A stretch of DNA of 52,245 nucleotides from a virus (lineage: Duplodnaviria; Caudoviricetes). The stretch lies in IMG/VR virus record IMGVR_UViG_3300030106_004934, positions 1-52,245 of that record; one strand, written 5' to 3'. The translations under genes were made by a program, and so were the position numbers. Position 1 is the stretch's first letter. Each line of letters begins with the position of its first letter. Below, piece by piece: positions 3,113 to 5,759 of this stretch. A model generated the notes under the pieces. The model did not search any database. It saw only the letters and a list, made by a program, of their open reading frames with translations, and had not been told where the DNA came from.

Positions 3113-3326
3113 CTATCTCTCCCTTTGTTGTTGCACTAATATATTCTAATGATCTTGTACGCTTAGTTTTAGCTTTTTCACTTAGTCTTTTAATGTGATG
3201 ATATTTTCTTACAAGTCTCATGTTAATATTCACATTTTCTTCTTCTAAAAAGTCCATTAATTCATCAATATATTCTACTATATTTAATGTTGTCCTGCTT
3301 TGTAAAATAGTTTCATCTAAATGCAT
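3105..3326 (-). CDS. Hypothetical protein
   Basis: 73-aa ORF, AAGGAG SD, TAATG coupling. Confidence 0.65.
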   Translation of the reverse strand: MHLDETILQSRTTLNIVEYIDELMDFLEEENVNINMRLVRKYHHIKRLSEKAKTKRTRSLEYISATTKGEIDE

Positions 3327-3535
3327 TATTCGTTCTCCTTTGTTAGATCAATTATATCATCTATATCTTCAATATTGTAATCACCACAATTACTGCAACA
3401 AGAAATAAAGAATGTAGGCTTACTGTCTTCATCTTCATCTATTACTATACAAGTATTACCATTGCTTATAGGCTGTGTTCCATCTGAAAACCACCAATCA
3501 TGTTTCAGTTTTTCTTTTAATGTTATAATTTTCAT
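3326..3535 (-). CDS. Hypothetical protein (CCSNC motif)
   Basis: 69-aa ORF, AAGGAG upstream. Confidence 0.65.
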   Translation of the reverse strand: MKIITLKEKLKHDWWFSDGTQPISNGNTCIVIDEDEDSKPTFFISCCSNCGDYNIEDIDDIIDLTKENE

Positions 3536-3567
3536 TACGCTTTATTCTCCTTAATTATAAAATGTTA

Positions 3568-3702
3568 TATATCCCACGAAACCTACTGATACCGTCACTG
3601 CTCAGGTGAACTGGAGTATACTCGATTCCTACTATTAAAGGTACAAAAGGGACCTAGTTTCAGCTAGACGTCAGCTTTCGATCAATAATAGATTGGGATA
3701 TA
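3568..3702 (-). ncRNA. Candidate structured RNA (multibranch with pseudoknot)
   Basis: Closing stem TATATCCCA/TGGGATATA; CGAAA/TTTCG and GCTGA/TCAGT; hairpins CTAG-CTGAAA-CTAG and TCAC-CTGAGCA-GTGA; crossing 10-bp pairing CTATTATTGA/TTAATAGTAG. Confidence 0.5.
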
Positions 3703-4237
3703 ATAATTAAAACTTGGGCTGATGAAGGATTTGAGATTACCTTCAAAATGATATACTCTTATGGGCTTTTGGCCTCACGACACACACAACAATGACTGTC
3801 ATCACTCTACTCATAATAGTTTTGTCTACTATTACATTGCAGGATCCCACTACAGGAATGTTATATTCTATACATCTCAGAGCTACGAGTTAGATTCATA
3901 GTATAGATTAATGCCGACATAAAATCTCTTGGGTATCATCCCATTCTCTTTTATGTTCTCGTTTACATTTACTCATATCTAAGCAGTTACACTCATATTA
4001 CTATCATTTGATAATAACATTAGACATCTCTTAGATACAATACCTGTGTACTTTTATGCAAAACACTTTCACAGGTTTATCATTTAACATATTAACTACA
4101 ATAACCAATCGTCATTGATTATCTCATTAAATATGTACCAAAGCTTTAAATCTTCTGCTATATAAGTGGCTTGGTTAATTCTTACGTCATAATGACTGCC
4201 AATATCTTTATAAGTTATTCACTTACATAGTCTTTTG

Positions 4238-4310
4238 TTGCGGAAACTGGAGTCGAACCAGATGTCTCTTGGTTATGAGCCAAGCGTTTAAACCGTTTTA
4301 CCCTTCCGCC
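4238..4310 (-). tRNA. tRNA-Met(CAU), initiator-like, atypical D arm
   Basis: GGCGGAA/TTCCGCA acceptor stem, CTTGG-CTCATAA-CCAAG anticodon arm, CTGG-TTCGACT-CCAG T arm; followed by CAA rather than CCA. Confidence 0.8.
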
Positions 4311-4771
4311 ATTAAATCTTTTGATTGCTATCTAATAATGTAATACTTATCATTTACATAGCTAAAGGTTACAGCTAACAATAACCTATCTATTATAACA
4401 CCCGATGTAGGGTTGCCTTTTCTTCTGCTAATCATCACATGTAAATGACTAGAGAATGGGTGAAGCATAACCGATTCTTCAGTTGCTCATCCATAGTTAG
4501 CTATCACTATAGATATTATTATTAACGCCTTGTAATTTAATACTATGCGCTCTATGGTGGCTTTGAGATGCTATCTCTCAGGTTTTTGCATGTATTCCAC
4601 CTATTTAATAGGAACTTGTTAACCTCACCACCATATACTTTAAATCATATGTTTAGTATAAGTTGGTATATATATATTGTGTGCATATGTGTGTATTGGA
4701 GTTAGAATACCCCTAAATACCTTCCCTTTCGTAATATATACCTAATACTACTAAGAATAAATAATAATAGT

Positions 4772-4802
4772 AAAAAGGGGACATAATTAAACATCCCCTT
4801 TC
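4772..4802 (-). terminator. Intrinsic terminator
   Basis: AAAGGGGATG-loop-TGTCCCCTTTTT just after the stop of 4807..5163. Confidence 0.75.
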
Positions 4803-4806
4803 ATAA

Positions 4807-5163
4807 CTATTCGTCGTAAATATCTTCAGTCTTAGTATCCTGAAGCGTCCAACCATTAGATAACAAACTATCCATAGCTTTAGCATCAGCAACTTCAACA
4901 GTTTTCTTACCATTAGAGAGAATATATTTTTCTTCTCTACCAATAAGAACACGGCCTTGTGTACTGCTATCACTAGTAGTAACAGAGTTGAACAAAGTTA
5001 ATGCATTACCTACATCTTCCATAGTATTAGCACTCTTAAGAACTCTGATCATATTACCAGCCATTGCACTACCTAAAGGAGTAGCTATATCTATATTAGT
5101 TTTCCCTTCAGGCAATCTAACAGTTGATGTTCTATCCCATCCAGCTTTTAATCTTACACTCAT
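4807..5163 (-). CDS. Hypothetical protein; first gene of the leftward arm
   Basis: 118-aa ORF, GGAG SD, followed by a terminator. Confidence 0.75.
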   Translation of the reverse strand: MSVRLKAGWDRTSTVRLPEGKTNIDIATPLGSAMAGNMIRVLKSANTMEDVGNALTLFNSVTTSDSSTQGRVLIGREEKYILSNGKKTVEVADAKAMDSLLSNGWTLQDTKTEDIYDE

Positions 5164-5184
5164 TAGTATTTCTCCGTAGTTTCT

Positions 5185-5250
5185 AAAAATAACACAAAAA
5201 ATAAATCAAAAATAACCTAAAAACGATAGTCAAAATCCCCTGATAAGGGG
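5185..5250. promoter_or_regulatory. Phased A-tract repeats plus CCCCT-GATA-AGGGG hairpin at the strand divergence point
   Basis: A-tracts start at 5185, 5196, 5208, 5219 and 5232; hairpin at 5237-5250. Confidence 0.4.
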
Positions 5251-5302
5251 TGGCCAATATATAAAAGACCACACACCAAAATGCTACAATTTTTAAAACC
5301 TC

Positions 5303-5332
5303 TTGTTTATATTAAATATCTTTTGCTATATT
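5303..5332 (+). promoter_or_regulatory. Putative sigma70-type promoter of the rightward (structural) operon
   Basis: TTGTTT-18 bp-TATATT with extended -10 TGn. Confidence 0.4.
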
Positions 5333-5573
5333 TCAACATCGGTAATTACAGTTTTTTTTAATTATCACCCAGAAAGTACACGTGTGAATCGTTCTGCTTT
5401 AAGGGTCAGAAGTTGGGTTGCTCACCATATAGGATAATGAGTTTGTCCCCAATAACCGATAAAAAGGACTTGAATATAAATCTGAGTATGGGAGAGTATA
5501 ACTGGCTTAGAGGAAGTTTCACTGTTAAATTTTTTAAAACAATCTTGATTGTACAGGGGCTAACTATATCAAA

Positions 5574-5759
5574 ATGAAATTAAAAGAGTATAAGCTAATT
5601 ATTATGTTTGATCCAGATACAGGAGAAATTAAACATTTAGAAGAGTCTTGTAGTAGTAATTACAAATTTGCAATCAATGAAGAGATTTTAGAGATATCAG
5701 AAGAAATGGAAGAATATCTTGATAAATATTTAGATTGCGATATTTTAGGTTTTTCTTAA
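5574..5759 (+). CDS. Small acidic hypothetical protein
   Basis: 61-aa ORF; first gene on the + arm. Confidence 0.55.
   Translation: MKLKEYKLIIMFDPDTGEIKHLEESCSSNYKFAINEEILEISEEMEEYLDKYLDCDILGFS

Follow-up and report, generated by a model that had tools for sequence, protein, structure and literature searches.

A bounded 135-nt element between a large structured RNA and the first leftward gene of an uncultured marine phage, tentatively read as a shuffled 5' leader cassette

What is a compact stretch of 135 nt, closed by its own inverted repeat, doing directly before the ribosome-binding site of a phage gene? A preliminary description of this locus had pictured it as a multibranched RNA with a pseudoknot and two CUGA-loop hairpins. 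The window analyzed here is an entire IMG/VR virus record of 52,245 bases with an estimated completeness of 98%. Its source is an uncultured marine phage: the locus is present in many marine metagenomes, and among the tblastn matches listed TerL was at most ~25–26% identical to that of any isolate. A blastn search against phage records matched the window at its tRNA only, and when 10 neighboring proteins were compared with PHROGs only terS received a name. The leftward genes (below position ~5200) are located on the minus strand, and therefore the candidate is read on the minus strand, from 3702 to 3568. It is placed inside some 1.2 kb of non-coding sequence (4772..3536), which begins after a terminator-like hairpin (4802..4773) and also harbors a tRNA with anticodon CAU. 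The features of the candidate and of the gene behind it are as follows.

3568..3702, minus strand: the candidate, a 135-nt non-coding element with a 9-bp perfect inverted repeat at its ends (from sequence, fold, GC content and the relative).
3694..3702, minus strand: closing stem, 5' arm, UAUAUCCCA (pair probabilities 0.66–1.0).
3568..3576, minus strand: closing stem, 3' arm, UGGGAUAUA (pairs with 3702-3694).
3682..3691, minus strand: 5' strand of a 10-bp A/U-rich stem whose partner is 3629-3638, nested (MFE fold; ensemble probability 0.15–0.18).
3629..3638, minus strand: 3' strand of the predicted 10-bp stem.
3547..3552, minus strand: Shine-Dalgarno (SD) sequence AAGGAG of the first leftward gene (from sequence; accompanies the unit in other contexts).
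3326..3535, minus strand: downstream 69-aa ORFan gene without a PHROG family (PHROG search; its homologues are without the leader).

The GC content of the candidate was 0.407 versus 0.322 for the genome, which corresponds to the 95th percentile of 135-nt windows. A small ORF (3660..3746, 28 aa, TTG start) was dismissed: it overlaps the end of the neighboring large RNA and is unsupported. Further along the record, between divergent operons, there is a 410-nt stretch (5164-5573) without a convincing ORF. Its identity with the L085 contig is 98.8%, and blastn matched parts of 5177-5582 in 48 of 83 loci at 70–93% identity. Possible roles for this stretch are a divergent promoter region, a packaging site or a further RNA.

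We could confirm the outer part of the proposed structure. The perfect 9-bp closing stem is present on the minus strand (3702-3694 with 3576-3568) and ends, as described before, 15 nt upstream of the SD sequence (3552..3547) of gene 3535..3326. For the interior the picture is different. The 10-bp pairing between 3691-3682 and 3629-3638 does exist (8 Watson-Crick and 2 G-U pairs), but in the MFE fold it is nested round the CUGAAA hairpin, so that the crossing helices of an H-type pseudoknot are not formed. Both small hairpins, CUAG-CUGAAA-CUAG and UCAC-CUGAGCA-GUGA, can be drawn and both CUGA loops occur in the window, yet in the Boltzmann ensemble the first hairpin reached a probability of 0.24 and the second 0.02–0.04; the closing stem alone was robust (0.66–1.0). 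The two main helices of the element are no more than what is expected at chance frequency for a genome of 32% GC. Perfect 9-bp inverted repeats spaced by 80–160 nt were found 34 times in the window versus 35.8 ± 5.9 times in 100 Markov simulations, and in random 135-nt windows (n = 600, G-U pairs allowed) a contiguous helix of at least 10 bp was observed in 24% and one of at least 9 bp in 47%. The MFE z-score of the candidate was -1.07 (28 of 200 shuffles were as good), and -1.13 in a repeat run (46 of 300). These z-scores are uninformative here because the window's own true tRNA (-1.02) and the covarying 3' domain of the neighboring large RNA (-0.42) scored just as poorly. The fold of the candidate given above is a predicted one.

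Also, the earlier statement that the element belongs to no assignable family was borne out. Rfam 15, applied to the whole window at gathering score, gave the tRNA at 4238-4310 as the sole match, and at E<=10 over 3300-4800 there was nothing over 3568-3702 on the minus strand; a SNORD45 match on the plus strand (E = 4.1) was considered noise. ARAGORN detected 0 tRNA genes and RF00005 had no match on the element, in which an acceptor-like closing stem is the one tRNA-like trait present.

Contigs of four public runs were aligned to positions 3250-4850. This comparison showed that the element is NEVERTHELESS a unit, discrete and bounded, which was assembled by itself in the marine DNA run X8, a run that may be the window's own source sample.

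3565..3703, no strand assigned: the unit as delimited in nature, a 139-nt stand-alone contig (DNA run X8, marine; zero differences).

The edges of this unit are only 1 and 3 nt away from those of the closing stem. The X8 contigs that flank it (3250-3594 and 3674-4154) are separate, each overlapping the unit by 30 nt; the unit branches at both ends, and the loose ends at 3703 and 3545 lead into other contexts. Contig depth was 155.7 for the unit versus 13.4 and 62.5 for the flanks, a weak measure with a single figure per contig. Loose ends at 3545 were observed in X8 as well as in the RNA run X17. They have 10 letters beside 3545 in common, including the complement of a start codon, and beyond these letters the X8 and X17 ends diverge from each other and from the window. 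Because of this divergence at the start codon, the unit with its SD sequence precedes at least three different first genes. At the other side, we read in the loose end at 3703 a hairpin with a loop matching that of the terminal hairpin of the upstream large RNA, and judged by this match the loose end would be a diverged version of the same upstream neighbor. No contig of the RNA runs X14 and X17 lay over 3602-3711, a contig gap which is no evidence of absence; nearer to the gene, the cover by X17/X14 is a 57-nt piece (3545-3601) derived from a variant.

Relatives were gathered through the small terminase gene (the best 80 of 150) and through the 69-aa gene (3 viral and 5 metagenome loci). Altogether, homologues were sought in ~1.1 Mb of DNA from related phages, in 25 related records and, by k-mers, in three collections. 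The element was detected in one other contig only (L002/L082/L085/L086), with 2 differences in 135 positions (98.5% identity). This near-identical contig alone was recovered by nhmmer on 83 loci. The same held for R1, a covariance model built from the element, when it was run over 83 sources (759 kb), where the remaining matches had E >= 1. With R1, 1 of 25 whole related records was matched (0 of 16 among those at least 90% complete), 5 metagenome loci searched with filters off yielded nothing (best E = 0.69), and the same was true for 39 further loci (best E = 1.2). Three 19–21-mers of the element were found in IMG/VR viral contigs in the near-identical contig alone, one 19-mer had 0 matches in metagenome contigs and another had 0 matches in GTDB genomes. 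Besides, none of the 7 homologues of the 69-aa gene (L083, L084, L087–L091) had the element upstream; their upstream regions contained other genes, a tRNA or unrelated spacers. The two substitutions in the relative (L082) have different consequences: the first changes A-U to G-U and keeps the pair of the MFE model, and the second turns the loop CUGAGCA into CUAAGCA and would disrupt one pair in the MFE hairpin that competes with it. Since the sole homologue is 98.5% identical, the comparison lends no support to any fold. In the same comparison with the L085 contig, the ORFs were 92.5–94.9% identical and the aligned 4.2 kb ~94%, and the excess conservation of the element, as estimated from this one pairwise comparison, had a binomial P of 0.019, or 0.011 against the ORF rate.

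These data bear on the preliminary proposal of a riboswitch-, ribozyme- or scaffold-like RNA, under which the element, as a novel RNA, would sense a ligand, cleave itself or form a T-loop tertiary scaffold and so control the gene behind it. Its position 15 nt upstream of the SD sequence and its lack of a known family are in line with such a role, and the loop UGAAA agrees with the T-loop consensus, U-G-N-R-A. The first SD bases could also be reached by an A/U helix formed outside the element (3712-3703 with 3559-3550); however, this helix is not retained in the alternative upstream context represented by the contigs. An aptamer should recur before one functional class of genes, whereas this leader is missing before all 7 homologues of the 69-aa gene and stands before at least three different first genes, which is unexpected for a gene-specific sensor. 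Moreover, the supposed pseudoknot is a nested stem, the inner stems are weak, the second CUGA loop is mutated to CUAA in the only relative, and motif searches found no self-cleaving ribozyme family scoring at E<=10 in the element. We therefore regard this proposal as highly improbable, and a riboswitch or ribozyme identity of the element is not supported.

The non-coding tract also contains the upstream neighbor of the element, which we designated RNA-400.

3712..4130, minus strand: RNA-400, a conserved, covarying large structured RNA of ~400–420 nt (nhmmer, alignment A4, covariation and RNA-run contigs).
4238..4310, minus strand: tRNA with anticodon CAU, upstream of RNA-400 and in the same orientation (Infernal RF00005, 40.6 bits; missed by ARAGORN).

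The 3' end of RNA-400 is 10 nt from the candidate, and tRNA(CAU), which has a G1-A72 mismatch (4310..4238), is located 107 nt upstream of RNA-400. The RNA-400 region has no ORF longer than 35 aa. By nhmmer, 12 distinct contigs were identified as carrying it (the window, the L085 contig, L009, L014, L016, L018, L072, L087, L092, L096, L097 and L101), and at least 12 contigs of marine phages have it downstream of tRNA-Met. RNAalifold on the 10-sequence A4 alignment predicted 86 pairs in 14 helices, three of them long-range, and 54 pairs showed compensatory changes. In a counting control, 93.3% of cells were paired versus 38–47% with slid partners, the 54 double-change pairs compared with 9–18 in the slid versions, and 0 of 500 shuffles reached any of the measures. 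Identical contigs covering 3712-4101 were present in RNA run X17, and a ~92% alike variant (3764-4672) in X14, a poly(A) RNA run from a different study. RNA-400 matched no Rfam family at gathering score or at E<=10, a manA match (12 bits, E = 3.8) being rejected as noise, and its core pattern was absent from GTDB genomes. A full-text literature search found nothing specific on marine phage RNAs resembling it, which is a thin basis for calling it unreported.

GOLLD and ROOL are described as large structured phage-encoded RNAs of unknown function that occur near tRNAs; one marine GOLLD is downstream of tRNA-Met, and tRNAs may sit within GOLLD loci (bioRxiv 10.1101/2024.12.08.627333). RNA-400 has the features of this class in that it has a large covariation-supported fold, is phage-encoded and has a tRNA adjacent. 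It also resembles GOLLD in its place downstream of tRNA-Met and in size, the Rfam GOLLD model having 416 positions. Membership of GOLLD proper was rejected by RF02032 (gathering score 150 bits), with which no part of the window matched at E<=10 among 9 candidates scored. RNA-400 is a candidate for a new large phage RNA of the GOLLD/ROOL kind.

Several other observations were made in and around RNA-400. In X17, a 233-nt contig joins position 3914 back to 3712 (plus strand), giving a 203-nt cycle over the RNA-400 3' domain. This puzzling head-to-tail joint could stem from an RNA that is circular or in tandem, from reverse transcriptase reading through a branch, or from an assembly artefact. A 17-nt segment of RNA-400 (3925-3941) matches the tRNA in its anticodon-arm region (4265-4281) at 82% identity, a likeness which hints that a variable RNA-400 hairpin may have been derived from a tRNA. 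In L087, an 82-nt tmRNA-like, tRNA-like domain (1789-1870) is located directly 5' of RNA-400 (RF00023, E = 4.7e-13; its 41.1 bits are below the gathering score of 47). A G3:U70 pair is present in its acceptor stem and a UUCGAUU loop in its T arm, and the D and anticodon arms are replaced by a single long hairpin. A DUF2815 match in the same contig (15 bits) was noise. In another related phage, ARAGORN reported an 89-nt tRNA with anticodon UUA ('tRNA-Stop'; L073:1743-1831, minus strand) ~340 nt from tRNA-Met, a possible ochre suppressor tRNA. As for the surrounding sequence, the 107-nt spacer between tRNA and RNA-400 (4131-4237, minus strand) is 99.1% identical to L085, and its positions 4155-4236 are 92.7% identical to L023. 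Within the fast-evolving segment 4311-4806 (88.9% versus L085), a short block at 4641-4705 shows 78–100% identity in 17 relatives and may be a promoter or the 5' end of the tRNA/RNA-400 transcript.

We compared the slot between RNA-400 and the next SD sequence in the 12 distinct contigs and found that its content was variable. The candidate occupied it in two (the window and the L085 contig), tRNA(CAU) in one (L096, 74 nt) and unrelated inserts in two, and the slot was empty in the remaining seven (L009, L016, L018, L087, L092, L097 and L101), where the SD sequence follows RNA-400 after ~25–60 nt. The insert of L014 has 141 nt and an 8-bp closing stem. That of L072 (~350 nt) consists of several stem-closed modules, and ~145 nt of it recur in L006 in another context and with sharp edges. 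Viewed together, L072:3341-3693, L006:2667-2811 and L014:3699-3901 (all minus strand) are non-coding modules closed by 8–9-bp stems, and the stretch common to L072 and L006 includes a 74-nt unit with z = -2.4. The empty slots are too short for a separate promoter, and therefore the downstream genes are probably read through from RNA-400. As 7 of 12 RNA-400 loci are without an insert, the cassette is dispensable for the RNA-400-to-gene arrangement. A consensus scan of 3568-3702 detected no sigma-70-like site on either strand.

One interpretation of this slot is that the element encodes a small stable RNA of its own in a tRNA-type position. Such an RNA would be excised from the tRNA/RNA-400 precursor like a tRNA, with the closing stem in the role of acceptor stem. 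The presence of a 74-nt tRNA in the identical slot of L096 is consistent with this idea, as are the raised GC content, which the tRNA shares, the match between unit edges and closing stem, and the 74–141-nt inserts with 8–9-bp closing stems in the L014 and L072 slots, one of them common to L006 with sharp edges. A parallel may be drawn with phage T4, whose RNAC and RNAD have ~120–140 nt and are located in the tRNA region. These two are described as small RNAs of unknown function (PMC9697503). Likened by description, they share with the candidate a phage origin and an association with a tRNA region, although the candidate is known from DNA contigs and not as a discrete stable RNA. Against this interpretation, the element has no tRNA-like T arm or other tRNA feature by ARAGORN and RF00005, its inner fold is ill-defined, and the closing stem was adopted as a criterion post hoc and is of a kind that chance often produces. 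Besides, the sequence shared in other contexts extends through the SD, which fits a leader better. On balance we consider an independent small RNA gene unlikely.

A broader version is that the candidate belongs to a group of small structured RNAs that replace one another directly 3' of the new GOLLD/ROOL-like RNA-400, within an island of tRNA, large RNA and small RNA. The group would comprise the L096 tRNA, the 135-nt unit, the 141-nt L014 insert and the 74–145-nt units of L072/L006, and its small members would be clients or partners of RNA-400 (for example, cargo, processing substrates or decoys) traded as cassettes between marine phages. This is a speculative extension, to which we give a rather small chance.

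The element may also have no function of its own, being leftover or filler moved by recombination between close phages, with a structure that is the chance fold of A/T-rich sequence. Its helices at chance level, the z-score of about -1.1 and the diffuse ensemble would all be expected in that case. So would its scarcity: it was found in 0 of 16 near-complete related genomes, was missing at 7 of 12 RNA-400 loci, and had no homologue elsewhere in the collections searched. However, the element is more conserved than the neighboring ORFs (P about 0.01–0.02), has sharp edges with differing flanks on both sides and stands at the 95th percentile in GC content, and 135 nt of junk directly before an SD sequence would rarely be kept by compact phage genomes. 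A functionless filler is somewhat unlikely in our view, but recent recombination without function could account for the identical unit in several contexts.

Bacterial MITEs, for example those of IS630/Tc1 type, are 100–150 bp long and have terminal inverted repeats and a TA duplication. A MITE-like miniature inverted-repeat transposable element, inserted at a TA of the A/T-rich spacer, would agree with the perfect 9-bp terminal repeats of the element, its length of 135–139 bp, the unit edges at the repeats, the TA/TATA on both sides and the apparent insertion relative to the 7 empty sites. The TA/TATA at the two flanks is palindromic and part of the repeat, so a target duplication is not callable. 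On the other hand, the repeats have just 9 bp, the element is single-copy in its own genome, and no family members were found: the k-mers mentioned above led to the near-identical contig only in IMG/VR, and to none in metagenome contigs or GTDB. A scan for the terminal-repeat pattern returned 33 stretches, with ~33 roughly estimated from chance, and the interior of the element was absent from 32 of 32 other viral contigs carrying the same repeat pair 100–130 nt apart (best 12.8 bits, E = 1.2). Such a mobile element is therefore improbable.

The reading that we prefer, tentatively, is that the element is a lineage-restricted, horizontally shuffled 5' leader cassette (3565-3703 plus the SD sequence) residing in the variable slot between RNA-400 and the first ORFan gene; it has a reasonable, although less than even, chance of being correct. 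The closest described things are the promoter-early stem-loop (PeSL) cassettes of T4-type phages, which carry a strong sigma-70 promoter and occur in many copies per genome (Arbiol et al. 2010, PMC2839356). PeSLs and the candidate are alike in being short intergenic cassettes with a stem-loop and an SD sequence at the end, placed before variable ORFan genes and associated with gene exchange. In contrast, the two defining PeSL features, promoter and copy number, are lacking in the candidate, which has no promoter-like site and is present once in its genome. A PeSL is a single G/C-rich stem-loop, whereas the candidate is longer (135 nt) and multi-branched in the predicted fold.

Under the leader cassette model, tRNA(CAU), RNA-400, the cassette and the genes would form one minus-strand transcript, from which RNA-400 would be freed as a stable RNA while the cassette would remain at the mRNA 5' end. 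Its one robust helix, the 9-bp closing stem, might then serve together with the loosely folded interior as a structured 5' cap and spacer. In this way the cassette may insulate the folding of RNA-400 from translation initiation, and it could act in RNase processing or in mRNA stability. Its conservation might also make it a recombination linker at which first genes get swapped. Co-transcription and a processing or stabilising role are inferred, since contigs cannot show RNA ends.

The clearly structured RNA of the locus is RNA-400 and not the candidate, and the larger value lies there: RNA-400 is a further candidate for the few large phage RNAs located near tRNAs (GOLLD, ROOL). The element, for its part a modest case, shows how first-gene cassettes can be exchanged behind a constant leader.
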